This document shows, in pieces, positions 1-12,424 of a stretch of DNA of 64,000 bases. The DNA is from an uncultured delta proteobacterium (GTDB lineage Bacteria > Desulfobacterota > Desulfobulbia > Desulfobulbales > Desulfocapsaceae): the NCBI GenBank assembly GCA_963845115.1, contig CAWJQN010000003.1, forward strand, positions 391,694-455,693, given 5' to 3'. Every line of letters starts with the position of its first letter. Within the stretch, counting starts at the first letter, position 1. A model generated the notes under the pieces. That model was not told the DNA's origin and made no database searches. It saw nothing but the letters and a program-made list of their open reading frames with translations. The translations under genes were made by a program, and so were the position numbers.

Positions 1-231
1 AAGAAGCCGCTGCTCCCGAAAAGCCACATGCGTCTTCTGAGATGCGTCGATTGCTGCTTGAAAATCTCCGGGAGGATCAGACGGAGCTGCGCTATCGGCA
101 ACAGCCGGACAGGTCAGTACAAGTAAATAAAGCCCAGTCAATATCAGTAAAAGTGGAAATGAGGCCAATATGGCGATCCGATTACGAGCCAGCGTAAGAT
201 TAATGAAAATAGTCTTGTATAACGGTGGCAT
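1..231 (-). CDS. hypothetical exported/membrane protein, N-terminal part only (gene runs off the left edge)
   Basis: The complement ATG at 229-231 opens a frame that stays open to position 1. The translation MPPLYKTIFINLTLARNRIAILASFPLLLILTGLYLLVLTCPAVADS... looks like a signal peptide or TM helix. It is absent from the ORF track because it has no stop in the window. Confidence 0.35.
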   Translation of the reverse strand, partial: MPPLYKTIFINLTLARNRIAILASFPLLLILTGLYLLVLTCPAVADSAAPSDPPGDFQAAIDASQKTHVAFREQRLL

Positions 232-298
232 TTAGCTGTCCTGATCATTCACCGCAGTCTCGAATCGGTGGCAGCGCCACGTTCGGAATCAAGAAGCG

Positions 299-1135
299 TC
301 ACAAGGGCTTCGGTCGGGGAATAACTTCCGTCACAGCTCTTTCTCTTGTGAGCATGTCCTTGTCTTTCCACCAAACGATAAGGGTTGCAACAACAATCAG
401 CAGGTATGTGTCATAGGGTTGCGCATCCGGGAAAATCGGATTCATGAGCGAAAAGTGGAAGAATGCCGAGAGAAGAATGCTGCCACGCGAGTTGTTAAAC
501 AGTGCGGTTGCGATGACGCTGATCGCCAGGCATCCAGCCAAAAATGCCGTGAATGACCACTCGCTCTGCTGGGTTCCGCTCAACAGGAAGGCCGGCAGAT
601 GCCACAGCCCCCAGATGGCTCCAAGAATCAGTCCAGCCCAAAGCGGAGCGAATTTCCTTTGCAGAAGAGGAAGTGCAAGACCCCGCCAGCCGAACTCCTC
701 GATCGGGCCTTTGATGGCGGCAAGGGTCAAGGCCACGATCAGCCCCTGAAAGGACGCAAAGGGGAAAGGTTCCGCCAGAAGGTTCCCTCTAATCGCCGAC
801 CCAACAATGAAGATCAGTGGCACGCCAATGATAAGAAAGGCATACCAGGCCGCGCTGCAACGCCATAACAATGCCCGGCCGAGAAAACGCAGTAAACCGC
901 CGAAACCGTCGTTGCGGGCCACAAGAATAAACGCTGCGATTGCAGGCGCGTATACGGCCAGGAAAAAAAGCGGATGGTTACCGGTGAGCTGTCCAAAAAC
1001 TGTTCCCATAAGGTCCGGGAGAAGGATGTACAGTCCAAGGATACCCCAAGCGATGCCGAACGAGATCAGCAGAAAGGGAGTAATTGAACGGAACCGCATG
1101 CGGCATGCTTCAGGTGCTGAGGTGCGTTGATGCAT
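299..1135 (-). CDS. CPBP-family intramembrane glutamic endopeptidase (CAAX protease / bacteriocin self-immunity family)
   Basis: Multi-TM ORF with the CPBP motifs visible: EEFGWRG (EExxxR), WGLWHLP and FFHFSLMN (HxxxN). The track start at 1156 is a TTG that lies inside a GTTGGCC heptamer of the upstream repeat. I therefore use the first ATG at 1135 (MHQRTS...). Confidence 0.8.
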   Translation of the reverse strand: MHQRTSAPEACRMRFRSITPFLLISFGIAWGILGLYILLPDLMGTVFGQLTGNHPLFFLAVYAPAIAAFILVARNDGFGGLLRFLGRALLWRCSAAWYAFLIIGVPLIFIVGSAIRGNLLAEPFPFASFQGLIVALTLAAIKGPIEEFGWRGLALPLLQRKFAPLWAGLILGAIWGLWHLPAFLLSGTQQSEWSFTAFLAGCLAISVIATALFNNSRGSILLSAFFHFSLMNPIFPDAQPYDTYLLIVVATLIVWWKDKDMLTRERAVTEVIPRPKPL

Positions 1136-1150
1136 GTTTTCTTTTTTCTT

Positions 1151-1222
1151 GGCCAACGTGAAGTTAAGCGGCGGGCTTCAGCGAGTCCGGCGCAGTGTAA
1201 CGGAGCGCACTTAAACGATAGG
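1151..1222 (-). repeat. intergenic repeat copy A (attC-like candidate), truncated on its 5' side by the IS3 remnant
   Basis: 1167-1191 (AGCGGCGGGCTTCAGCGAGTCCGGC) matches 5161-5185 at 22/25 positions. It also shares GCGAGTCCGG with 6962-6971. Read on the minus strand it shows inverted arms GTTTAAG...GCTTAAC, then 5 nt, then GTTGGCC (close to GTTRRRY). Confidence 0.45.
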
Positions 1223-1412
1223 TGAATCGGCTCTGGTTTTGTAGACGATTTACACCTTCACCGCATGCTGCTGCTCGTATTCGACCGGTGAAAGATCATC
1301 GTAGAATCCGTGCCGACGAACCGGATTATATAACATTTCAATGCAGTTGAACACGTCCCGACGGGCAGTTTCACGGTATTTGTAAATATTCTGTCCGATA
1401 AGCTCACCGTAA
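1223..1412 (-). mobile_element. IS3-family insertion sequence remnant (3' end of the transposase gene plus terminal inverted repeat)
   Basis: Minus-strand translation gives ...ELIGQNIYKYRETARRDVFNCIEMLYNPVRRHGFYDDLSPVEYEQQHAVKV*, with the stop at 1250-1252. This is the typical extreme C-terminus of an IS3 DDE/rve transposase. 1223-1250 (TGAATCGGCTCTGGTTTTGTAGACGATT) resembles an IS3-type terminal IR beginning TG. No catalytic core lies upstream, so the element is truncated. Confidence 0.7.
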
Positions 1413-1547
1413 AAAAGAATGTTCTTGCAATGAGTCGTTCACACGGAAAAACCTATGAGCTCAGGACTAGTGCGATTAAAATGGATAATCAACAATCAAG
1501 ATTACGTTTTTTGTTCCATTTACATAATTTGCAACGAGAAGGGAACT

Positions 1548-3917
1548 ATGACACCCGAGATAATTCTTGTATTTGTAATACTGTTGGTGGTTATCAGTGT
1601 GCTGGTGACCGAGCTTATGCCGCTGGAAGTGCTTGCAATGCTCGTTCTTGGAGTGTTAGCAATTACCGGATTAGTGAGTCCGGTAGAGGCCCTTGCCGGC
1701 TTTAGCAATCCGGCCGTCGTTACTATCTGGGCGGTATTTATCTTGAGCGGGGGGCTCACCCGAACCGGCATAGCCAATATTCTCGGCAGGTATCTGCTGA
1801 AAATGGTGGGCTCGGGAGAGACACGACTGGTGATTCTCATCATGCTTATTGCCGGCGGGCTTTCTGCGTTCATGAACAATGTTGCGGTCGCCGCATTGAT
1901 GTTGCCGGTTGTTATGGATATCGCCCGGAAAACCGGGCACTCTCCCTCGCGAATCCTGATGCCGCTGGCCTACGGTTCACTCTTGGGTGGGCTTACCACC
2001 ATGATTGGTACCCCCCCTAACATCCTGGTGAGCGAGGCGTTACGAACAAATGGTCTCACCCCCTTTGGCCTTTTTGATTTTACGCCAGTGGGCCTCATTG
2101 TCATGGTTGGCGGGACGCTTTTTGTCACTTTTTTCTGTCTTCGGCTGCTGCCCGATTCCAGTAAGCAGACGACAGGACAGGTAACTGAGAAGCATGTTCT
2201 CGCGAGATATAAGATCCAGGAGCGGCTTTTCAAGATTCGAATTCCGCAAAAATCCGCGCTCATAGGGAAGACGCTGGTCTCCAGCGACCTGGGAGCTCGT
2301 CTGGGCCTCAATGTTATTGGCATAACTCGCGGGCTCCGGACTATTCTTGCTCCTGAGATAACGGAGCGAATACAGGTTGGCGATGAACTGATTGTTGAAG
2401 GACGGTATGATCCAATTGAAGAAATAAAGAACTGGGGACAACTCCTGACAGAGAATTCAGATTCCGAATTACCGTGCCTGCAATGCTTCTCAATGGAAGT
2501 GGCGAAGGTTCAGCTCGCTGCAAACAGTCCATGGAGTAACAAGAACCTCTCAGATCTCAGCTTTCGTAACAGCTTTGGGCTCAATGTTCTGGCAGTTATT
2601 CGCGCCGGCAAGAAGATCGATCATAATGTCAAGTCGTTACAGTTGAGAGAAGAGGATACGCTTGTTGTACACGGCCCAATTGCAAACATCGACAGGTTTG
2701 CATCAGAAGAGGGTGTCCTGGCACCTGCGATCCTGGCTAAAGAGGATGTGGCAAATGACTACATGTACAAGCGCAAGGTGCGCCTGCTTGATGTACCTGA
2801 AAACTCGAAACTGGTGGGTCTTACGGTTGCCGACAGCCGCCTGGGAGATAGTCTCGATATACAGATTCTGGCAATTGTCAGAGAGGACGGCACTGCTCTT
2901 GTGCCAACACCCGATGTGCAATTTGAAGCCGGCGACAGACTTTTAGTTTCGGGAATGTCAGATCTCGCTGCGGCTCTGCTCATGTATGGCCTGGATGTAG
3001 TTTTTGACAGCGATCAGCTGGAGCCCGTAGATTTATCGGTTCTTGAAAATGACCAGTTTGGGCCGGTTGAAGTTATCCTCTCTCCTTATTCTGTGCTCTC
3101 CGGCCAGACCTTGGAAGAGATCAGTTTTCGGGAAAAATTTGGTCTGACGGTCCTTGCAGTCCTAAGAAAAGGCCGTGTTATCAGAACTGGACTGAGCAGT
3201 TTGCGATTGGAGTTTGGGGATGCTCTATTGCTCTTCGGAAGCTGGAAAAAACTGGCTGTGCTCGGTCGTGAACCTGATTTTGTGGTATTGACCGAGGAAA
3301 TGCAGGAGGTTGCCCGGGAGGAGAAGGCAAAAACGGCCCTGGTAATAATGGCAGCCGTATTGGTGCCGGTTATGCTCGGTTTAGTGCCGATTTATATTGC
3401 CGTGGTCATAGGAGCAGCGTTAATGGTGCTGACCAAATGCCTGACAATGGATGAGGCATACCGTTATATCGAATGGAAAGCCGTTTTCCTGATCGCCGGC
3501 ATGTTACCCCTGGGGGTGGCACTGGATAAAACCGGCGCAGCATCACTTGTGGCGGAGCAGGTAATTAACCTGCTTGGGCCGTTTGGCCCCTATGGTATTC
3601 TTTTTGGCCTGCTCGCTATCACCTTTGTGGCAACCAGCATAATTCCCACAGCGGCACTGGTGGTCCTGATGGTGCCAATTGCGTTGAAAACATCAGCGGG
3701 ACTTGGGATTTCTCCTTATCCACTGATGATGGGAATTGCCATGGCCGCTTCTTCGAGTTTCACCTCACCCATATCTCATCCTGCAAATGTTTTAGTGATG
3801 GGGCCCGGCGGATATAAATTTATGGATTACATCAAGGTCGGTGTGCCGCTGACACTGGTCATTTTTGCAATTCTGATGGTGGTGATACCTGTATTCTGGC
3901 CATTAACAGGACAATGA
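1548..3917 (+). CDS. SLC13/DASS-type anion permease with four internal RCK_C (TrkA-C) domains
   Basis: Start moved to ATG 1548 (GAAGGGA upstream; MTPEIILVF...). Hydrophobic permease halves flank four tandem ~70-aa repeats of TrkA-C type: ...ALIGKTLVSSDLGARLGLNVIGITRG..., ...NKNLSDLSFRNSFGLNVLAVIRAG..., ...KLVGLTVADSRLGDSLDIQILAIVRED... and ...LSGQTLEEISFREKFGLTVLAVLRKG... Confidence 0.85.
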   Translation: MTPEIILVFVILLVVISVLVTELMPLEVLAMLVLGVLAITGLVSPVEALAGFSNPAVVTIWAVFILSGGLTRTGIANILGRYLLKMVGSGETRLVILIMLIAGGLSAFMNNVAVAALMLPVVMDIARKTGHSPSRILMPLAYGSLLGGLTTMIGTPPNILVSEALRTNGLTPFGLFDFTPVGLIVMVGGTLFVTFFCLRLLPDSSKQTTGQVTEKHVLARYKIQERLFKIRIPQKSALIGKTLVSSDLGARLGLNVIGITRGLRTILAPEITERIQVGDELIVEGRYDPIEEIKNWGQLLTENSDSELPCLQCFSMEVAKVQLAANSPWSNKNLSDLSFRNSFGLNVLAVIRAGKKIDHNVKSLQLREEDTLVVHGPIANIDRFASEEGVLAPAILAKEDVANDYMYKRKVRLLDVPENSKLVGLTVADSRLGDSLDIQILAIVREDGTALVPTPDVQFEAGDRLLVSGMSDLAAALLMYGLDVVFDSDQLEPVDLSVLENDQFGPVEVILSPYSVLSGQTLEEISFREKFGLTVLAVLRKGRVIRTGLSSLRLEFGDALLLFGSWKKLAVLGREPDFVVLTEEMQEVAREEKAKTALVIMAAVLVPVMLGLVPIYIAVVIGAALMVLTKCLTMDEAYRYIEWKAVFLIAGMLPLGVALDKTGAASLVAEQVINLLGPFGPYGILFGLLAITFVATSIIPTAALVVLMVPIALKTSAGLGISPYPLMMGIAMAASSSFTSPISHPANVLVMGPGGYKFMDYIKVGVPLTLVIFAILMVVIPVFWPLTGQ

Positions 3918-4086
3918 ACCCGGCGTTTCAAGTTCCAGTCAGAATAGAGGCGCCTGATCTCCACTCATAGATGAACTTGAAGCTCTGCTCCATTTTAGTC
4001 GTTTCCGTCCAGGCCACGGCAGAATTCAGCCACCGTTGAAGGCGGGCGGCAGGAAAGACTTGTTGGGCGAATTGTCATGCACTGTT

Positions 4087-5007
4087 TCATGCCTTGTCCC
4101 CCAATGACTGGCTGATTCCCTGACTGTATGGCGTCGGTTGCAAACCAAATACAGATTCGATCTTGGTGCTTTCGAAACGATAATCATGCTCGAACTGGTA
4201 CATCATTTCCTCATTTTCACGAAGCACTGGCATAAAGACTCCCATGAGCTTCAGTATCAGACGCGGTGCGACTTGCAGCTTGTAAGGTTGGCCGCTCAGA
4301 TTGCATGCCAAACGCACGAAGTCCGCCCCCGTAGGCATCTCCTTGGAGGTTGGCAGGTGCCACGTTTGGCCATATGAGTCCGATGATCGTCCCAACACAG
4401 CGACGGCATGCCCGGCATCTGGCGTAAACGTAAACGTATGCACCGCGTTCGCGTTGCCTATCCACTGTGGTGCCTTTCCAGCCTTGAGACGCTCAAACAC
4501 TGTGACATGTGGAAAGCTTTGTACTGCGCCGGGACCGTAAAAATCAGCCGAACGCACGATCATCGCCTGCAGACTGCCATTGCGAATTTCTTCGAGCAGC
4601 ATCGTTGCAATCTTTGCCCTGACTTCGCCCTTTTTACTGATTGGATTGAACGGGGTATCCTCCGTCATCACACCGTCAACCCGGCCATACGCATAAACAT
4701 TGTCGAAGAACACGAGGCTTGCGCCATGCCTTTTGCAGGCGTCAATTGTATTGCGCATAAGACGCGGCCATTGCTCCTGCCAGACAGATGCGTTGTATTT
4801 CAAACCTGCCACCAGATAGACGACTTCGCTACCGGCTACTGCATTGGCGGTTGCCTGGGTGTCCAGGAGATCGGCCCCTAATGTCTCGTCAGTTGGGTTT
4901 ACTTTCCAAGGATTCCGGCTCACCTGCCGGATGTCAGAAGTATATGCGGCCAGTGCTCGCGATAGCTCCTGAGCAATGACTCCATTGGCACCAAGTATCG
5001 TATGCAT
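4087..5007 (-). CDS. NAD(P)-binding epimerase/dehydratase-like protein (atypical/extended SDR)
   Basis: Track ORF 4087-5199 trimmed to ATG 5007, with AGGAGG about 10 nt upstream. The N-terminus MHTILGANGVIAQEL is a Rossmann GxxGxxG-type site. The 64 upstream codons of the track ORF run through an intergenic repeat. Confidence 0.7.
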   Translation of the reverse strand: MHTILGANGVIAQELSRALAAYTSDIRQVSRNPWKVNPTDETLGADLLDTQATANAVAGSEVVYLVAGLKYNASVWQEQWPRLMRNTIDACKRHGASLVFFDNVYAYGRVDGVMTEDTPFNPISKKGEVRAKIATMLLEEIRNGSLQAMIVRSADFYGPGAVQSFPHVTVFERLKAGKAPQWIGNANAVHTFTFTPDAGHAVAVLGRSSDSYGQTWHLPTSKEMPTGADFVRLACNLSGQPYKLQVAPRLILKLMGVFMPVLRENEEMMYQFEHDYRFESTKIESVFGLQPTPYSQGISQSLGDKA

Positions 5008-5138
5008 GGTGCGACATCCTCCTCTAAAATCTTGTCGATTTCTCCTGCCCAAAAACACCGCTAAACCTGTCAACGAGGAGACCCATTCCCTGCTTGACAT
5101 GGCGATGGCTCTCTCTATGGGACTCAGAGTCCTGAGAC

Positions 5139-5215
5139 GCCCAACGCAAACGCTGAGTAGAGCGGTGAGCTTCAGCGAATCCGGCAAAGCAGAGCACAAT
5201 TAACCGAAATGTAAT
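5139..5215 (-). repeat. intergenic repeat copy C (attC-like candidate)
   Basis: 5161-5185 (AGCGGTGAGCTTCAGCGAATCCGGC) matches copy A at 22/25 positions. CGGTGAGCT (5163-5171) is identical to 6938-6946. On the minus strand the element ends with GTTGGGC (5145->5139), a perfect GTTRRRY heptamer. Confidence 0.45.
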
Positions 5216-5287
5216 CTATTTATTCTGTTATTCTTTTTCTTTGGTATTTCTTATTCTTTCCACCACCTGGCGGACATCGGGGATGCA

Positions 5288-5488
5288 TCATGTACCTTTG
5301 GGATTTTTAATTTCGCAGTTACAGCCTTTGTTCATTTTTTCTACTTTTATTTTTTCGAGAATCTTGGAGTAGCCATGATTCTTGAAATCTTCCTCAATGT
5401 CTTTCTTCGTGTATTCAAAACAGAAACAGAACAAATCATTACCTTCGAATTTGTTGTTTTCAGTCGAGTCTTTGATGTGTTGGATCAT
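5288..5488 (-). CDS. small Cys-pair protein, possible BFD-like [2Fe-2S]/metal-binding mini-domain
   Basis: 66-aa AT-rich ORF with CFC...(~32 aa)...CNC spacing. I can make no firm family assignment. Confidence 0.35.
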   Translation of the reverse strand: MIQHIKDSTENNKFEGNDLFCFCFEYTKKDIEEDFKNHGYSKILEKIKVEKMNKGCNCEIKNPKGT

Positions 5489-5625
5489 TTTAATCTTTTA
5501 TCAGATAACGCCACAATCATGGAACCGAAGCGTGGTAAGGATTTTTACTGCTAGCCTTGAGCAAAGCGACAGACAGCAGCAGCGGGGCGCGGTTTTGGGT
5601 CGCCGTGGATTGACTTTTTAGAACT

Positions 5626-6441
5626 TTACGCGAACATTTTACTGGTAACTTCTTTCAGGAGTTTCGCGGCCACCATAGCGGTCACGCCATTAATGTCTCT
5701 TTCAGGATTAAACTCTACAATATCTGCACCCACCAGTTCTCCTTTCAGATTTTGTATAATCTCTAAAAGCTCTCGAGTACTCATTCCTCCCGGCTCATGG
5801 TGAGAAATACCTGGCGCATATGCAGGATCAAGGCAGTCCAAATCGATGGACATATATACCGGGCCGTCAAACTTCACATCTTTAGCAGTTGAAATACTCT
5901 TCATATCAATAACTTCCACTCCAAATTTATCAACCTGCTCTCTTTGGTGGCCGGTCATTGTCCGAATCCCGACTTGGACGAGTCTAACCGCGAGCTCTTC
6001 TTCCATAATGCGAGCAAATGGACAGGCATGGGAATGACGATTTCCCCTCAAATCGTCATAGAGGTCGGGGTGGGCGTCTAAATGAAGAATACTCAGATTT
6101 TTATATGACTTCGCAAAAGCGCGAATAATAGGAAACGTAATAGAATGGTCACCGCCTAACGAAATAACTTTTGAGCCATTTTTTACTAATTCATCAATTT
6201 CATTTTCAATTTTCTCAAACGCTGAAAATTCTTTTTCAAACTGTATATCTTCATTGATTTGCAAGGTGGACAACGCCCCCAAATCAATTAAATCTTCCGT
6301 CCACAAATTAGACGAATCGCAGTTCAGGGCTGCTTTAATGATCGCAGGCGCTGATGCAGCCCCTCTTTTATAAGAAGAGTTGCTGTCGAGTGGCACACCG
6401 ATAACAACGACACTCTTTTTATTATTTTTTTCTCTACCCAT
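5626..6441 (-). CDS. speB: agmatinase / ureohydrolase (arginase family)
   Basis: Arginase-fold Mn-site motifs are visible: GGDHSITFP, LHLDAHPDLYD, SIDLDCLDPAYAPG and HEPGG. The length of 271 aa is typical of compact agmatinases. Confidence 0.8.
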   Translation of the reverse strand: MGREKNNKKSVVVIGVPLDSNSSYKRGAASAPAIIKAALNCDSSNLWTEDLIDLGALSTLQINEDIQFEKEFSAFEKIENEIDELVKNGSKVISLGGDHSITFPIIRAFAKSYKNLSILHLDAHPDLYDDLRGNRHSHACPFARIMEEELAVRLVQVGIRTMTGHQREQVDKFGVEVIDMKSISTAKDVKFDGPVYMSIDLDCLDPAYAPGISHHEPGGMSTRELLEIIQNLKGELVGADIVEFNPERDINGVTAMVAAKLLKEVTSKMFA

Positions 6442-6502
6442 ATTTCAAATTATTACTGATTTTCAGACTGGTATTTATTGATTCTGACACCCAATTATGT
6501 GG

Positions 6503-6616
6503 TGAGCAACGCACAAACCAAGTTGCTGCATTCCACCGTAAATACCCAAACGCACTGCAAAACCAGAACGCCAAGCGTTGCGAATCCACTTGAATTGTTT
6601 ATTGGATGCGTTCTCA
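6503..6616 (-). repeat. ~114-nt imperfect palindromic element E (attC-like candidate)
   Basis: The arms TGAGCAACGCACAAACCAA (6503-6521) and TTGGATGCGTTCTCA (6602-6616) are inverted repeats (4+6+4 paired positions) with a single-base bulge and one asymmetric internal loop. The minus strand reads GAGAAC...GTTGCTC at the ends. The interior contains GCGAATCCAC (6580-6589), related to the GCGA[A/G]TCCGG core of copies A, B and C. Confidence 0.45.
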
Positions 6617-6618
6617 AA

Positions 6619-6915
6619 TTAGAACGGGTAATCAAACACAACGATATCTTCCAGCAACGGCCTAAACACTTGCTTCAGCGCTTCATGCTCGGCGTGTGGG
6701 AGATAGTTTTGACGCCCCGCTTCATCCGCGAACGTCATTAAGACTGAGTGCGTATAACCCTTGTTCTTGCCTTCGGGGCTATCGTTGATTCCCCATTCTA
6801 CCGATACGACACCCTCAACTCTTTCAGGAATCGATTCAAACAAGCCCTTGAGCTTGTCGATTTCTGATAGCAGAGATGAGTCTTTAAATTTAATAAGTAA
6901 GATATGTCGAATCAT
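6619..6915 (-). CDS. Dabb-family stress-responsive A/B-barrel protein
   Basis: 98 aa. It starts MIRHILLIKFKD and continues ...VVSVEWGINDSPEGKNKGYTHSVLMTF...YLPHAEH, the typical Dabb dimeric alpha/beta-barrel pattern. Confidence 0.75.
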   Translation of the reverse strand: MIRHILLIKFKDSSLLSEIDKLKGLFESIPERVEGVVSVEWGINDSPEGKNKGYTHSVLMTFADEAGRQNYLPHAEHEALKQVFRPLLEDIVVFDYPF

Positions 6916-6924
6916 TTATTTCAT

Positions 6925-6989
6925 CCTAAACTGCTAACGGTGAGCTAGCCGGCGAACTGCTGCGAGTCCGGTGGAACGCTTGGTTATCT
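6925..6989 (-). repeat. intergenic repeat copy B (attC-like candidate)
   Basis: It fills the VF530-Dabb spacer. The minus strand reads AGATAAC (overlapping the VF530 stop codon), then CAAGC, then GTTCCACCGGACTCGC...GCTCACCGTTAGCAGTTTAGG. It shares GCGAGTCCGG with copy A and CGGTGAGCT with copy C. Confidence 0.4.
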
Positions 6990-7289
6990 TTTTGTAATTT
7001 TTGAATGTTTGTTCACATTACTATTTTGCTTTTTCCGATGTCGCCCTTTTTCTTTGCGGATCACAAAGTGATAGATATAGAGTTTTTCAACTTTCTCTCT
7101 TGCCCAAGGAGTTCTACGAAGGAAGTTCAAACTAGTATTAATGGCTGGATTCAAGCTAAACACTTTAATTTTAATTTTATCGGCGAGGTAGGGAAAACCA
7201 TGGTATTCTACCAAGTCTTCTAGCATGTTTTTAAGCGTTACCCCATGTAAGGGATCTTTACCTTTGGAGTCCTTATTTTCTATCATCAT
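6984..7289 (-). CDS. VF530-family (DUF2132) putative DNA-binding protein
   Basis: DPLHGVTLKNMLEDLVEYHGFPYLADKIKIKVF...NTSLNFLRRTPWAREKVEKLYIY matches the DUF2132/VF530 four-helix protein pattern. Confidence 0.7.
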   Translation of the reverse strand: MMIENKDSKGKDPLHGVTLKNMLEDLVEYHGFPYLADKIKIKVFSLNPAINTSLNFLRRTPWAREKVEKLYIYHFVIRKEKGRHRKKQNSNVNKHSKITKR

Positions 7290-7578
7290 CTCATTCTATA
7301 AATGGTATGGATCGTACTTCAAGTGAGGTTACCGTAATAAAAATATTTAACTTTCAGTGACAAACTCAAAAATTGGTATTTTTCTACCCTCAACTTCAAT
7401 CAATTCAATGAACATTTTTTTTGGCCTTACCGACATGCTCTGATCGCTACTTATTCTAATTTTCGTTCAAATTGATCTTAATATAACGTCGCGGCTTTTC
7501 TCGGATTTCGCATCACTCGCCTCGACTAATTTCAGATAAAGGAGTCCCTAAGACGGTAACGACACCTTTCAGTTTTTA

Positions 7579-7830
7579 TACAGTAAGTCAACTACATGTA
7601 ATAGATATGTAAGAACTTTTTGGGATACCAGCCCAGTCATAGCCGCGTTGCAAGATCAAATAGTTAAGGTGCAATACATCGTTTTTGCGCATGCCAGGTT
7701 TTCCCATATTGGCTATAGCGTTGACATTTCATCCAAGACAGTAAAGACTTTTCCTGCCCACCTTGCAGTCAAGCGTAATGTTTCAGCTTCCACTCTAAAT
7801 CAGGTTTTCAACTCATTATTTATGTGAGAT
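7579..7830 (+). pseudogene. intI: integron-type tyrosine recombinase (IntI-like), N-terminal fragment only
   Basis: Hand translation gives ...YSKSTTCNRYVRTFW...YIVFAHARFSHIGYSVDISSKTVKTFPAHLAVKRNVSASTLNQVFNSLFM*. The HLAV-x-RNVSAST-x-NQ-x-x-N-x-L block is the signature of the Phage_int_SAM_4 domain of integron integrases. The frame ends at TGA 7828-7830, and no catalytic R-H-R-Y domain follows before yajD. Confidence 0.6.
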
Positions 7831-7962
7831 CTGTTACCTTGCCGCTGGCAGCAAAGATGAAGCAGAAAGCATTCAGGTTTACTGTATTTCTGTTTCTCTT
7901 TGACCTTGTCAATCTTCTGGCATCTCAGTTTTTGTCTCTTACTTTCCGTTTATAATCCCGAA

Positions 7963-8274
7963 CTATTTTTTAGGCTTGTTCAACAAGTTCTTGAGATCAG
8001 CGAAGGGAGAGTGCTTAGCCGTATCACCCTTCTCTTTGTCTGGATTTTCGGTGGACAGCCATTCGGCGTCGAGCAGGCGGGAATGCTCGTTATCGTGGCA
8101 GTAGAGGCATAACAGCTCCCAGTTGCTGCCGTCGGGCGGATTGTTGTTGTGATTGTGGTCTTTATGATGAACCGTCAATTCCCGCAGATTTTTCCCGGTA
8201 AAATCCCGGCCGCAACTTCCACAAACCCACGGAAAAAGTTTTAATGCCCGTTCCCGATAATCTATCTGTTTCAT
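7963..8274 (-). CDS. yajD: YajD-family HNH nuclease
   Basis: WVCGSCGRDF...LTVHHKDHNHNNNPPDGSNWELLCLYCHDNEH is the characteristic YajD HNH/zinc motif. Length 103 aa. Confidence 0.85.
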   Translation of the reverse strand: MKQIDYRERALKLFPWVCGSCGRDFTGKNLRELTVHHKDHNHNNNPPDGSNWELLCLYCHDNEHSRLLDAEWLSTENPDKEKGDTAKHSPFADLKNLLNKPKK

Positions 8275-8519
8275 TCTGTAACCCCGACATCAAAATGGTA
8301 GATAGCAATAATCTGATAGCAACCACGTTTGTGTAGTTTATTGATTCGCTTAAAAAACAAACCGGCACGACACAAAATCAGCATACGGTCTTATCCTTAA
8401 TTACACCAGAATCAAAACGGGCTGGGCCGCTTTGATAGTTATCTTCGATGAGCTTTTCTGAAACGAAAATGGTCACTGCTCTGAGCAAAAACAGCTACGT
8501 CGGCTTCCATGGCGACCAA

Positions 8520-9812
8520 TCATACGGCTTGGCTCTCCACCCTGTTACGGCCCTTCTCCTTGGCTCGGTATAGTGCTTCGTCAGCTCGATTAGTCAGGGT
8601 GGTGAGTGTATCCCCCAAACAATAAAGCGACACCCCGAAGCTGGCAGTCACCCGGGATGGTTTACCGAAATCGTATTGTTCGATCCTTCGACGTATTTTA
8701 TCGGCAAGCTGCATGCCTTGAGAAAGCGTGATCCCGGGACTGCAGAGGGTAAACTCCTCTCCCCCCCACCGGGCAAAGGAATCGCTGTCCCTGATATTTG
8801 CCAGGACGAGCTGGGCCAAACGCTTCAGGACTTTGTCCCCGGTCCCGTGGCCGTGGGTGTCGTTGATTTTTTTGAAGTGATCAATATCGAGCATGATCAA
8901 CACGAGCGAGGATTCGTAACGTTTGGCACGGGCTATTTCCACTTTCAGGACGTCGTTAAACTTCATCCGGTTGTAAATCCCGGTCAAGCCATCGGTGGTG
9001 GCCTGCTTTTCGAGTAAGGTGTTGATCGTCTCCAGCGACTGGAGGTAATTCTTCTGTTCGGTGATGTCGCGAAAAGCGATAACGGTGCCGGTTACCGTAT
9101 CTTCCTCAGGGATCGGTCGGGATGAGATCATCACCGGCAGCAGCTTACCAGAACGGCAGGTGAAGGTGCCCTCCTCGTTGTAGCTTTCGCCATCCTTGAC
9201 GGCTCCCAGCAGGGGGTTATCGTCGTGGTCTATCATAGAACCGTCGGGATGCTGTGTAAAAACGGTCTCGTGGACCATCGCACCGAGCAACTGATCTGGT
9301 TGGTAGCCAAGCATATGGCAGGCTTCAGGGTTTGCGAAAACGACCCTGCCGTGAGTATCAACAAGGAATATCCCTTCGCCGATGACCTCGGTTATCAGCT
9401 TGAAACGCTGCTCGATAGACTGCTTCTCACGCAGTGAGTTGATCATGTGGTTAAACGATTCAGAGAACTCACCAAGAAAGTGCACCTGCTGATTGAGGTC
9501 GCCTCCCGCGACCTGCTTTGCCTGCCAGCTCAGATGTATGAGGTTTGCCTGCAGTGATTTTAGCGGCATGGCAAAAATGTTTTTCTTTGACACATGCGCC
9601 TTGAGTTTGCCTTGCGACAGCTGCTCCGAAAATTGATACGACTCGTTGATCATCTCGAAGAATTGTGCCAACCTTGAGCATGCGTCCCGCAAGCCGTCAT
9701 CTTCAAGATCACGGGACTCAAGAGGAAAGGTCAGCCCCTCTCTGCCAAGGCCTTTGTCCATTGCTTTCTGGATGTACTGATCAATTAGTGCGAGGATTTG
9801 ACCGGAATCCAT
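8520..9812 (-). CDS. PAS-domain diguanylate cyclase (GGDEF)
   Basis: PAS segment GIFLVDTHGRVVFANPEACHMLGY. GGDEF domain with DIDHFKKINDTHGH and RWGGEEFTL. Confidence 0.9.
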   Translation of the reverse strand: MDSGQILALIDQYIQKAMDKGLGREGLTFPLESRDLEDDGLRDACSRLAQFFEMINESYQFSEQLSQGKLKAHVSKKNIFAMPLKSLQANLIHLSWQAKQVAGGDLNQQVHFLGEFSESFNHMINSLREKQSIEQRFKLITEVIGEGIFLVDTHGRVVFANPEACHMLGYQPDQLLGAMVHETVFTQHPDGSMIDHDDNPLLGAVKDGESYNEEGTFTCRSGKLLPVMISSRPIPEEDTVTGTVIAFRDITEQKNYLQSLETINTLLEKQATTDGLTGIYNRMKFNDVLKVEIARAKRYESSLVLIMLDIDHFKKINDTHGHGTGDKVLKRLAQLVLANIRDSDSFARWGGEEFTLCSPGITLSQGMQLADKIRRRIEQYDFGKPSRVTASFGVSLYCLGDTLTTLTNRADEALYRAKEKGRNRVESQAV

Positions 9813-9813
9813 A

Positions 9814-10332
9814 TCACCTTCCTGCAGGTCTTACATCGAATCGGCAGGTTCTCTCTCCAGTACCCCAGCAGTCCACCTCCCTGGCAGTGAATTTCTTCCC
9901 GGTGTACTGCTCAAATATCCCGGCGATAAACCCTTCATCGTATTCACATACTGATTCATCAAAGACCGGCAAGCCGGAGCAGTCGAGATCCTCGGATACG
10001 GTCATTGTAAAGGTTAATTCGCCCAGATCGGCCTCTTCAACCCGAAGAATGCCGACTTTCAGATCCACAAGTGTTTCTTTCAATTGTGCGATAAAGGTTT
10101 CAAAGGGAGCGCCGACATCGAGCACATTTTCACAGAACTTCTTGCCGGCCAGAAGACCGGCCTCGACGAGAAGCTCTGACATTTTTTCTTTTCCCAGGTG
10201 ATGAGACAGGACATCCTTGAAGGTGAACTGCATGAGACGGTATACGATAACAGATGTTTCAGGCCCCAGGTTTGGCCTTCCTTCGCTAAGATTGCCCAGA
10301 TGCTCCCATTGAAATCTATATGAGTCGCTCAT
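9814..10332 (-). CDS. V4R (4-vinyl reductase) domain protein
   Basis: 172 aa. The Cys-containing C-terminal half (...DCSGLPVFDESVCEYDEGFIAGIFEQYTGKKFTAREVDCWGTGERTCRFDV) fits the V4R small-molecule-binding domain. Its TGA lies 1 nt before the ATG of the GGDEF gene. Confidence 0.6.
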   Translation of the reverse strand: MSDSYRFQWEHLGNLSEGRPNLGPETSVIVYRLMQFTFKDVLSHHLGKEKMSELLVEAGLLAGKKFCENVLDVGAPFETFIAQLKETLVDLKVGILRVEEADLGELTFTMTVSEDLDCSGLPVFDESVCEYDEGFIAGIFEQYTGKKFTAREVDCWGTGERTCRFDVRPAGR

Positions 10333-10804
10333 CGTTTTCTCCCTTTCCCCTATAGTCGCTCCTGAACTGAGACTTTTCTCCTGAAGAGCATAATAAGACT
10401 ACACTAACTGGGCACTATTATCTGCAAAAACCTGGAAACACCTCTGCCACTGCCATCTTTGCCTTGAAGTTCCCCGTAGACTTTCATCTTGTTCATTCCC
10501 ATGCCTCTGACCCCGATTTAAGACCACATCCTGATTACACGGCAGCAGCTTTTCCACATAACGGCTTGTCCAAAGTCCTGGGCCCTTTTCTGCACATGGT
10601 GAAATTACCCAGCCAACCATTATTCAAGCTTCTGATATCAGAACAGAAAAGGAATGCAGTTATCCTTTCAGGATGGGGATGGTGAGTGCGCAGGTGCGAT
10701 AAATTATCACCCATGTTCAAGCAAAGGTGTTGCCTGTGTTTTCAGGTGTAACGTGAACAGACTTCATTGGGGAGAATCAGCAGATGCGGGAAGAATCAAC
10801 AGTG

Positions 10805-10823
10805 GCCGCCGCAATGCGGCGGC
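10805..10823 (-). terminator. GC hairpin downstream of the 64-aa ORF
   Basis: GCCGCCGC-AAT-GCGGCGGC forms an 8-bp stem about 30 nt after the stop at 10852. The minus strand continues ...actgttgattcttcc, a weak U tract. Confidence 0.4.
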
Positions 10824-10851
10824 TATGACCGTCTCGGATCCTGCATCGAGT

Positions 10852-11046
10852 CTAGGGCCGGTAGAGCAAAGTGATGGTGAGATTGCGTTCGAGCGCCTCT
10901 CCATGGGCAACCATAGATTCCGACTGCAGCACGTGGACGATCTCGACTTCAGGGTTCTCCTCCAGCCAGAGGTTGAGCTGCAACTCTCCCGGCGGATTGA
11001 TGTTGGTAGTGCAGTAGCTGAATATCTTGGCTTTCAGTGGCTCCAT
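10852..11046 (-). CDS. hypothetical small protein
   Basis: 64 aa from ATG 11046, with GGGAGG 6 nt upstream: MEPLKAKIFSYCTTNINPPGELQLNLWLEENPEVEIVHVLQSESMVAHGE... I recognise no family. Confidence 0.45.
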   Translation of the reverse strand: MEPLKAKIFSYCTTNINPPGELQLNLWLEENPEVEIVHVLQSESMVAHGEALERNLTITLLYRP

Positions 11047-11154
11047 GATAACCTCCCGGCACATTTCTGAATGTTCAGAGATCTGTTGCGGTCATCTCCA
11101 GGGTAATCACTGCAATAAGTATAAAAAACCTGACATCCCCTGTAAAGAGCCTGC

Positions 11155-11185
11155 CCGGCACGAGAGGTTCGATCCTTGGTGCCGG
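11155..11185 (-). terminator. hairpin downstream of gcdH (T-loop-like sequence in the loop)
   Basis: CCGGCAC (11155-11161) pairs with GTGCCGG (11179-11185). The 17-nt loop contains GGTTCGATCC. It lies about 60 nt after the gcdH stop. The U tract is weak. Confidence 0.35.
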
Positions 11186-11245
11186 CCCCGCCCACGACCG
11201 GCACAACTCGAATCTTCCGGTTTCCGGGAACCTGTTCAGGCGTGA

Positions 11246-12424
11246 TTAGGTGAAGGCGGCAAGGCCGGTCACCTGCTGGCCGATGATCAGAGTATGAATG
11301 TCATGGGTTCCCTCGTAGGTGTATACCGATTCGAGGTTGGCCATATGACGCATTATCGGGTATTCCCCCATGATGCCGTTGGCCCCGAGCATGGTCCGGG
11401 CAGCCCGGCAGATATCGAGCGCCACCTGGACGTTGTTCATCTTGGCCATCGAAACCTGGGCAGGCGTGGCTTTCCCCTGGTCCTTGAGCCGTCCCAGATG
11501 GAGGACGAGCAGCTGGCCCTTGGTGATCTCGGTGACCATCTCGGCCAGCTTCTTCTGCTGGAGTTGGAACGCCCCGATCGGCCGATCGAACTGAACCCGG
11601 CTCTGCCCATATTCCAGGGCAGTCTGGTAGCAGTTGTCGGCCGCCCCCAGCGCTCCCCAGGCGATACCGTAGCGGGCCTGAGTCAGACAGCTGAGCGGAC
11701 CTTTGAGACCGGTTATGCCGGGCAGCAAGCCCCTGGATTCATCGACCTCAACGTTGTCAAGGGTCAGTTCCGAGGTAACCGAAGCGCGCAGGCTCCATTT
11801 GTTTTTCATCCGCGGTGCCGAAAATCCCGCCGTTCCTTTTTCGACCAGAAAGCCGCGCACACCGTCGGCGGTCATCGCCCAGACCAGGGCGACATCAGCG
11901 ATGGAGCCGTTGGTAATCCACATCTTCGAGCCGTTGATCAGCCAGGTGCCGGATTCGGTGCGCTCAGCCCTGGTCCGCATACCGCTGGGGTTGGAGCCGA
12001 AATCGGGCTCGGTCAGGCCGAAGCAGCCGATCTTTTCGCCGGCCGCCATCTTCGGCAGCCAGTAGGACTTCTGTTCGTCGCTGCCGTACGCGAAAATGGG
12101 ATACATGACCAGTGAGCCCTGAACCGAAGCGAGGCTGCGCAGGGCCGAGTCCCCCCGTTCCAGTTCATACATCAGTAGCCCGTATGCAACATTGGACAGC
12201 CCGGCACAGCCGTATTCCTCCGGCAGGGACGGTCCGAAAAACCCGAGTTCCCCCATTTCCGGGATCAGCTGATCCGGAAACGACTCCCGCTGAGCATGGT
12301 CATCGATAATCGGCATGACTTTGTCGTTGACAAAAGCCCGGGCCGTTTCGCGTACCAGCTTTTCCTCGTCCTCGAGCAATTCCTGAAAATTCATGTAATC
12401 GGTCAGTTCGGTTGTCTGTTGCAT
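11246..12424 (-). CDS. gcdH: glutaryl-CoA dehydrogenase (acyl-CoA dehydrogenase family)
   Basis: Full-length match to the GCDH pattern: ...EMGELGFFGPSLPEEYGCAGLSNVAYGLLMYELERGDSALRSLASVQGSLVMYPI..., CFGLTEPDFGSNPSGMRTRAE, SKMWITNG and YTYEGTHDIHTLIIG. Confidence 0.85.
   Translation of the reverse strand: MQQTTELTDYMNFQELLEDEEKLVRETARAFVNDKVMPIIDDHAQRESFPDQLIPEMGELGFFGPSLPEEYGCAGLSNVAYGLLMYELERGDSALRSLASVQGSLVMYPIFAYGSDEQKSYWLPKMAAGEKIGCFGLTEPDFGSNPSGMRTRAERTESGTWLINGSKMWITNGSIADVALVWAMTADGVRGFLVEKGTAGFSAPRMKNKWSLRASVTSELTLDNVEVDESRGLLPGITGLKGPLSCLTQARYGIAWGALGAADNCYQTALEYGQSRVQFDRPIGAFQLQQKKLAEMVTEITKGQLLVLHLGRLKDQGKATPAQVSMAKMNNVQVALDICRAARTMLGANGIMGEYPIMRHMANLESVYTYEGTHDIHTLIIGQQVTGLAAFT

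Follow-up and report, generated by a model that had tools for sequence, protein, structure and literature searches.

Gene content of the locus

The subject of this study is a stretch of 64 kb (contig CAWJQN010000003.1, positions 391,694 to 455,693; hereafter the window) from a Desulfobulbales-like genome, whose region 1151-7830 is probably a fossil chromosomal integron. The genome is of the sulfate-reducer type; the recombinase gene is nearly lost and most of the recombination sites of the cassettes (attC) are mutated. A preliminary description, made from the letters and open reading frames of this DNA, had already proposed a decayed integron here.

The array is read on the minus strand in the order DUF1653 remnant with VF530, Dabb, agmatinase, a 66-amino-acid (aa) Cys protein and SDR, with an attC or a probable attC remnant after each. 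Cassette 1 carries the gene of a VF530-family DNA-binding protein (6984-7289; PF09905, E 1.7e-26), cassette 2 that of a Dabb protein (stress-responsive A/B barrel; 6619-6915; PF07876, E 1.5e-26) and cassette 3 that of an agmatinase of the arginase family (5626-6441; TIGR01230, 208.5 bits against a cut-off of 174.3; PF00491, E 5e-71). The 66-aa Cys-rich protein of cassette 4 (5288-5488) is similar to the CopZ N terminus and to BFD-like 2Fe-2S domains (NF047645, E 4.8e-9, below the cut-off; PF04324, E 0.049), and cassette 5 encodes an NAD-dependent epimerase/SDR (4087-5007; PF01370, E 4.7e-14). The inferred cassette lengths of ~0.36-1.1 kb are typical. By Pfam and NCBIfam, these minus-strand reading frames lie where the preliminary description had placed them and belong to the families that it named. 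Two features had been overlooked there, a DASS transporter gene (1455-3917) and a DUF1653 remnant (7353-7454).

The G+C content (GC) is 0.33-0.45 in VF530, Dabb, agmatinase and the Cys protein compared to 0.56 in the rest of the window. This is a foreign composition and is counted for the integron. The AT-richness claimed for the whole run is thus true for four genes, but not for SDR (0.53) or the CPBP gene beyond the array (0.545, near the genome background); SDR, DASS and CPBP together range from 0.50 to 0.545.

Recombination sites in the window

A repeat finder detected one three-copy family of 40-nucleotide (nt) repeats in the window (1152-1191, 5146-5185 and 6933-6972; 70-78% identity); elsewhere in the 64 kb the repeat core does not occur beyond chance. 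For a search outside the window, one genome of each species was scanned with a degenerate 22-nt pattern derived from the three copies. The matches were mostly chance, in high-GC genomes, apart from ~23 loci, mostly of Desulfobacterota, in which the core lies inside a conserved 58-nt element with the consensus nnnTAAC - CAAnT - CrTTnCACCGG - ACTCGCTGAAGCTCG - CCGGTGAAy - TTnAC - GTTAGnn. This is the layout of an attC, R''-spacer-L''-loop-L'-spacer-R', in which the L'' arm has a single unpaired base that varies, the extrahelical base expected of attC. In 17 seed sequences the proposed pairs are 94% paired, compared to 21-47% in a control with the partners slid, and columns 13 and 46 covary between G-C and A-U (9:6).

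Covariance models were built in three rounds (R1 to R3) from outside sequences only. The last, R3, comprises 48 attCs of 47-135 nt and no window sequence, and these outside attCs carry many compensatory L-box variants. With the iterated models, 15 of the 23 loci have two to five co-oriented sites, on one strand per locus. The 58-nt type has ~85% mean column identity across loci, and its carriers include Desulfosarcina, Desulfobacter, Desulfobacula, Desulforhopalus, Desulfofustis and Desulfobulbaceae. In a metagenome-assembled genome (MAG) of Desulfosarcina (locus L029, CAXXOY010000002) it stands in an array that starts beside a full-length integron integrase (IntI; TIGR02249, 472 bits against a cut-off of 265). 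The same type was also seen in MAGs labelled Chloroflexota, Spirochaetaceae, Methylobacter and Nitrospirae (L046, L049, L080 and L095), behind unrelated genes; this cross-phylum occurrence could be due to cassette exchange or to binning errors. An Rfam scan (positions 1-12000 at E<=10; the whole window at gathering thresholds) returned noise and no attC-like family, which is uninformative about attC.

R3 was run over all 64 kb with filters off. Its three significant matches are all on the minus strand, i.e. the cassette-coding strand, and all within 1151-6989; no significant match was found in 7000-64000, and the control loci gave no match at E<=1 in 84 kb (default filters) or in 20 kb (filters off). 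The search with an attC model that had been proposed earlier was therefore positive when done with our own lineage model. The best preserved site is the attC of cassette 1 (6932-6989; 51.9 bits, E 1.5e-13, 2 of 13 pairs broken; nhmmer E 3.3e-11). Its R'' box AGATAAC overlaps the stop codon of VF530, the L'' box reads GTTCCACCGG, and R' (GTTAGCA) lies 17 nt before the Dabb start. It keeps AAC and GTT but has a damaged L-box, since L' has degenerated to CCGGCTAGC where CCGGTGAAC is expected. The site at 1151-1216 (25.2 bits, E 5.7e-5 window-wide; nhmmer E 1.4e-9) keeps the core of the family, L' (CGCTTAAC), a 5-nt spacer and R' (GTTGGCC); L'' is changed in a way that by eye is compensating (GTTTAAGTG), and R'' is without AAC. 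The third, at 5146-5222, is the attC remnant of cassette 4, detected through its core at 5163-5183 (partial R3 match of 19.2 bits, E 5e-3; nhmmer E 1.3e-5). Here the core and R' (GTTTGCG) are kept, the left arm and the L-box are degenerated and R'' has no AAC; the repeat within it (D1) is 78% identical to copy 1.

What defines an attC, the R'', L'', L' and R' boxes, the extrahelical base and detection by a covariance model, was thus found. The architecture in the array, nnnYAAC-5nt-L''...L'-5nt-GTTRRRY, is lineage-specific. Of the significant sites, 6932-6989 and 5163-5183 are separated by 1.7 kb, and 1151-1216 follows ~3.9 kb further on. At least two attCs within 4 kb and no functional integrase gene (intI) nearby make the region a cluster of attC sites lacking integron-integrases (CALIN).

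The three remaining cassettes are followed by probable decayed attCs, likewise on the minus strand, that start 3-19 nt past the upstream stop codon and cover from a third to nearly all of the spacer. For cassette 2, 6482-6607 (12.1 bits; E 1 window-wide, i.e. at noise level) begins 12 nt past the Dabb stop and takes up 126 of the 177 nt of spacer. The L-box AATTcAAGTGG / CCACATAATT is kept, and there are lesions in R'' (AAT for AAC) and R' (GTC for GTT). A pair of R boxes seen by eye in this Dabb-agmatinase spacer (GCAACGC...GCGTTGC) was dropped; the model alignment puts the R boxes farther out and assigns this palindrome to the inner variable stem. For cassette 3, 5503-5623 (9.2 bits; E 8.6 window-wide, 0.24 within 3900-5700) starts 3 nt past the agmatinase stop and has R'' TTCTAAA (AAC changed to AAA), the spacer AAGTC, L'' AATCCACGG, L' CCATGATT and R' GTTATCT. 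For cassette 5, 4011-4068 (10.3 bits; E 3.7 window-wide, 0.1 within 3900-5700) starts 19 nt past the SDR stop; R'' (GCCCAAC) and the spacer AAGTC conform to the consensus, the L boxes are TTTCCTGCC (L'') and GGCTGAAT (L'), and R' has GTG for GTT.

Taken together, the four remaining predicted minus-strand spacers amount to 781 nt, and three of them have an R3 match of at least 9.2 bits, where 0.034 are expected from the background of 5 such matches in 2 x 57 kb outside the region (Poisson P ~7e-6). Each of the six sites follows a minus-strand reading frame and is itself on the minus strand. Four of the six have a lesion in the invariant AAC or GTT triplet; GTT in R' is kept at 1151-1216, 5146-5222 and 5503-5623. 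Of the related palindromes that had been described in the spacers, three are copies of the related repeat, and the others fit the architecture at noise-level scores only.

The fourth-best match in the window is of a different kind: a 37-nt attC-like mini-hairpin (5426-5462, plus strand; 14.9 bits, E 0.12) lies inside the 66-aa reading frame on the opposite strand. It is probably a chance match in AT-rich sequence.

Probable remnant of an integrase gene

At the upstream end of the array and divergent from it, ~220 nt from the truncated first cassette, the plus strand contains at 7672-7818 what is probably, judged from sequence similarity, a remnant of intI. Its ~45 codons cover what in an integron integrase are residues 55-98, part of the N-terminal SAM-like domain, and an in-frame stop follows at 7828-7830. 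In a tblastn search of the whole window, IntI of the Desulfosarcina MAG aligns over these residues with 39% identity (49 columns, E 3.6e-4). The fragment matches the Pfam family SAM_4 (PF13495, E 7.9e-5) with 23.4 bits at a cut-off of 27 and TIGR02249 (E 5e-4) with 19.4 bits at a cut-off of 265; at E<0.1, two integron-integrase models are the only recombinase families of NCBIfam that it matches. Nothing is left of the catalytic part or of the IntI-specific C-terminal part, and 7290-7962 contains no further detectable intI sequence in any frame. The preliminary description had given the fragment as 7579-7830; the similarity to integrases was weakly confirmed, over the shorter span.

The first cassette is cut at its 5' end, since 7353-7454 (minus strand) encodes merely the last 34 residues of DUF1653 (65% identity to residues 38-71 of the Desulfopila protein, E 7e-14, tblastn); this is the 3' end of the truncated first gene of a two-gene DUF1653-VF530 cassette. 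Between the two remnants lie 217 unassigned nt (7455-7671), the expected place of the 5' end of intI, of attI and of the start of the first cassette. This span has no similarity to IntI or to the Desulfopila locus described below (L209). Because 217 nt are too short to accommodate attI together with codons 1-54 of intI and the lost start of the cassette, the junction of intI, attI and cassette has probably suffered a deletion; 7455-7671 is probably the scar, and attI, a kind of site for which no general model exists, was probably deleted. A promoter scan of 7200-8000 gave four sigma-70-like sites compared to 2.5 +/- 1.6 in shuffled sequences, which is not above chance and uninformative. Of the intI-attI-cassette geometry that had been claimed, the divergent intI-like fragment at the head of the array stands; the junction is lost, and both intI and the first cassette are truncated.

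Interruptions of the array

Beyond the SDR cassette, the plus strand carries a gene for a DASS/CitMHS anion transporter (1455-3917; PF03600, E 2.8e-94). With 820 codons and 2.5 kb it takes up 37% of the interval for which the integron had been claimed. Four TrkA_C domains (PF02080, four stretches) are placed between the two membrane halves of the transporter. An independent assembly contig (L001) has the same arrangement; there the gene call starts 31 codons later (789 aa), and the first ~30 codons in the window may be an over-extension. The transporter gene is not a canonical cassette: the DNA was inserted or rearranged, or else it is an inverted cassette of unusual size. Just past its stop, at 3913-3988 on the plus strand, is an 11-bp near-perfect hairpin with one G-T pair (GTTTCAAGTTC ... 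GAACTTGAAGC), head-to-head with the minus-strand site at 4011-4068. One possibility is a shared terminator, another is an attC whose cassette was inverted along with the transporter gene. The idea of a large cassette that was inverted with its own attC was considered and given up, as the plus-strand R3 match at 3913-3988 has 7.4 bits and is noise.

Adjacent to the transporter gene, the open stretch 1250-1438 (minus strand) encodes ~50 codons of the C terminus of an IS3-family transposase (PF13333 rve_2, E 1.4e-5, 25.5 bits against a cut-off of 22). As described before, this is a scar and not an element; a DDE transposase with terminal inverted repeats is not present. The sites of the array are all on one strand, but the array is interrupted by an opposite-strand gene and by the remnant of an insertion sequence (IS).

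On the far side of these interruptions, a gene for a CPBP/Rce1-like protease (299-1135, minus strand; PF02517, E 3.6e-12) starts 15 nt past R' of the attC at 1151-1216. CPBP may be the last cassette or the chromosomal flank, the latter because no site was detected after it: R3 has no match in 1-298. It had been listed earlier as a further possible cassette; it has no detectable attC of its own. A by-eye attC downstream of CPBP (TCCGAAC...CACCGTTATAC) was dropped; it is without support from the covariance model.

Related loci

The DUF1653-VF530 cassette was found in a second genome. Window positions 6995-7445 are 84% identical at the DNA level, over 452 nt, to 9842-10293 of a locus of Desulfopila sp. 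IMCC35008 (L209, CP050700), whose VF530 homolog is ~81-82% identical. As in the window, the pair is part of a co-oriented attC array: it stands in a series of small, unrelated genes of the same orientation, where R3 has five matches on one strand. In contrast to the window, DUF1653 is whole there and the distance from VF530 to the attC-like site is ~480 nt. This one cassette is all that the two arrays share; the other neighbours differ. Finding the same cassette with different neighbours in two genomes fits the prediction of cassette mobility. The Desulfopila array also holds debris of an IS and of a group II intron maturase (GIIM fragment, 9110-9379, minus strand), and within 20 kb it has no intI. 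DUF1653 and VF530 are a conserved pair of neighbouring genes in Desulfopila (L209:9722-10267) and, in truncated form, in the window, with a 60-nt spacer and no attC between them; they may be a functional unit of two genes that share a single cassette. At another locus (L210), a VF530 homolog lies beside HU, ROS/MucR, LonC, DruA and BrnA genes, where no attC matches were found.

The array of the Desulfosarcina MAG has the same 58-nt attC type and faces a full intI; unlike that of the window, this integron is intact. Directly 3' of its attC at 7239-7366 lies a group II intron (L029:7596-7804, plus strand; Rfam group-II-D1D4-6, 63.7 bits, E 1.9e-15) that looks like an attC-targeting group IIC intron. 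In a Desulfobacterales MAG, an arginase-family homolog (L033:7127-7726, plus strand) that is 29% identical to the agmatinase of the window is located downstream of a family attC and co-oriented with it. In this lineage, enzymes with the arginase fold may be repeatedly found in cassettes.

By its YajD homologs, the source of the window is near Desulfotalea, Desulforhopalus and Desulfopila. The YajD neighbourhoods of relatives with 83-87% identity contain no intI, cassette homologs or attC matches and are syntenic neither with the window nor with each other. A metagenome scan anchored on the GGDEF protein returned generic GGDEF domains (best match 44% identical), no synteny and no ortholog. Conserved synteny of the same genes without intI was not observed in the relatives either.

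Discussion

The repeats in the spacers are of the attC type that occurs in co-oriented arrays and beside a bona fide IntI, and in the window R3 matches significantly only here, on the cassette strand. This supports the integron proposed in the preliminary description. A complete integron has an intI above the cut-off that includes the IntI-specific insertion; here only ~45 codons are left, and there is no intact intI in the 64-kb window. In the terms of IntegronFinder, the region is the equivalent of a CALIN beside an intI pseudogene, interrupted by an IS remnant and a non-cassette gene.

Several observations weigh against this interpretation. The evidence for intI is thin, ~45 codons that are below every curated cut-off; the SAM-like domain is common to other tyrosine recombinases, and the fragment has no IntI-specific C-terminal insertion to compare. 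Half of the six attC calls are individually at noise level (9-12 bits). The attC model is our own lineage model and not that of IntegronFinder, and since the pattern that retrieved the outside family came from the window copies, the 22-nt core matches by construction; the independent evidence for the window attCs is therefore their flanking boxes, strand and placement only. None of the six sites, taken as single-stranded DNA, has a better fold than shuffled sequences (z +1.68 to -1.15), and as free-energy palindromes the spacers do not stand out. Of the real attCs of the Desulfosarcina MAG, a 127-nt site gave z -2.6 and a 58-nt site z -1.1; the test discriminates short attCs poorly, and the unremarkable folding is consistent with decay. 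The two long candidates are without the stable variable stem of a real long attC (L029 5718-5844, z -2.6). A 2.5-kb gene on the opposite strand sits within the array. Finally, neither the YajD neighbourhoods nor the GGDEF-anchored metagenome scan revealed a relative with an intact intI at the locus.

Some of these points are shared by the alternative that survives best, namely that the CALIN never had an integrase of its own at this place. Its cassettes would have come from an integron elsewhere by off-site insertion or rearrangement, and the fragment would be unrelated tyrosine-recombinase debris or a product of chance. It fits with this that the fragment scores below the curated cut-offs, that IntI1 misses it in a default tblastn search of the whole window, that attI is unrecognisable, that an IS remnant lies within the array and that most CALIN are without a nearby intI pseudogene (PMC4889954). 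We nevertheless regard this alternative as unlikely, because the sole NCBIfam recombinase matches of the fragment at E<0.1 are to two integron-integrase models, because the lineage-matched IntI aligns with it over 49 columns, and because it is found where intI is expected, at the upstream end of the array and in divergent orientation.

The array could also be a satellite that is still active and no fossil, with some cassettes excised or reshuffled in trans by an IntI encoded elsewhere in the genome. Half of all CALIN are in genomes that encode IntI elsewhere (PMC4889954), the site at 6932-6989 retains AAC, GTT and 11 of 13 model pairs, and GTT in R' is retained at three further sites. Opposed to this are the lesions in AAC or GTT at four of the six sites, the eroded L-boxes, the folding of every site, which is no better than that of shuffles, and the absence of a second intI from the 64 kb. 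Excision, moreover, requires two competent sites, and no adjacent pair is intact. An active array is thus very unlikely. A generic genomic island whose spacers carry a dispersed repeat of the REP (repetitive extragenic palindromic) or MITE (miniature inverted-repeat transposable element) kind or terminator hairpins would agree with the unremarkable folding and the noise-level spacer matches, but is hardly tenable and already largely refuted, as the repeat is, within the 64 kb, confined to this region, with no copy in 7000-64000 by pattern, hidden Markov model or covariance model, as the same element elsewhere forms co-oriented arrays next to IntI, and as boxes, spacing and strand asymmetry are those of attC.

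A fossil integron would have the following history. In the ancestral state, an integron integrase gene on the plus strand, read rightward, would have stood opposite attI and a minus-strand array of promoterless cassettes. For insertion and excision of cassettes, IntI would have acted on attC bottom strands in folded form, with recombination at G|TT of R', and the cassettes would have been expressed from the cassette promoter Pc, as known from established integron biology. Since then, intI has been cut down to ~45 codons, attI has probably been lost, and the first cassette has lost its 5' end, leaving the DUF1653 remnant and VF530. Beyond the SDR cassette, the array is broken by the opposite-strand transporter gene and the IS3 remnant, behind which one more attC (1151-1216) follows directly upstream of CPBP. 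Today the cassettes would be frozen, with no local integrase to move them: since four of the six sites are lesioned, the L-boxes are eroded and there is no local integrase, the cassettes should be immobile, most of them even if an integrase were supplied in trans. They would persist as ordinary accessory genes, driven by whatever promoters are left.

The kind of element is already known, and neither the mechanism nor the class of element is new. Gillings and colleagues are said to have described, in 2005, chromosomal integrons of Xanthomonas with inactivated intI. These have in common with the window a sedentary chromosomal array, an integrase lost by mutation or deletion, and fixed cassettes; the window differs in that it is from Desulfobacterota, has a much shorter array and a probably deleted attI, and was found in no relative in the searches made.

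Fifteen of 279 CALIN were reported near intI pseudogenes and 38% near IS (PMC4889954; Cury et al. 2016). Those near pseudogenes resemble the window in the co-oriented attC cluster with cassette reading frames, the lack of a functional integrase, a pseudogene no more than a few hundred bases away and an IS remnant close by. In the window, in contrast, the pseudogene is an N-terminal piece only and the attCs are decaying as well. The criterion used in that study, a match to the IntI-specific C-terminal profile with more than 50% covered, would miss the pseudogene of the window, and with a generic model perhaps no more than one or two of its attCs would be called. That attCs carry a taxonomic signal was shown with taxon-specific covariance models, including one for Deltaproteobacteria (PMC8352920; Ghaly et al. 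2021). The window attCs indeed share lineage-typical sequence and structure with attCs of Desulfosarcina, Desulfobacter and the other carriers named with them above. R3 was built separately from that model, and the 58-nt type is also carried by some genomes with the labels Methylobacter, Nitrospirae, Spirochaetaceae or Chloroflexota.

It is tempting to speculate that, if these labels are not binning errors, the 58-nt type marks a single pool in which cassettes are produced and exchanged across phyla (Desulfobacterota, Methylococcales, Nitrospirota, Spirochaetota and Chloroflexota) in anoxic sediments, although we hold this to be rather unlikely. If true, fossils that can be dated by lineage, with countable AAC/GTT lesions and compensatory L-box changes, could serve for studies of the birth, maintenance and loss of attCs, and this would bear on the open question of the origin of cassettes.

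The locus adds one documented example of a decayed integron from a lineage other than the well-studied Gammaproteobacteria, and it presents an order of erosion: deletion of the integrase and attI, point lesions in AAC and GTT, loss of pairing in the L-box, and an IS and a foreign gene that break the array. Such decayed arrays are probably under-called by generic tools. For annotation, VF530, Dabb, agmatinase, the 66-aa Cys protein and SDR would be former cassettes that were acquired horizontally, and not a functional operon.

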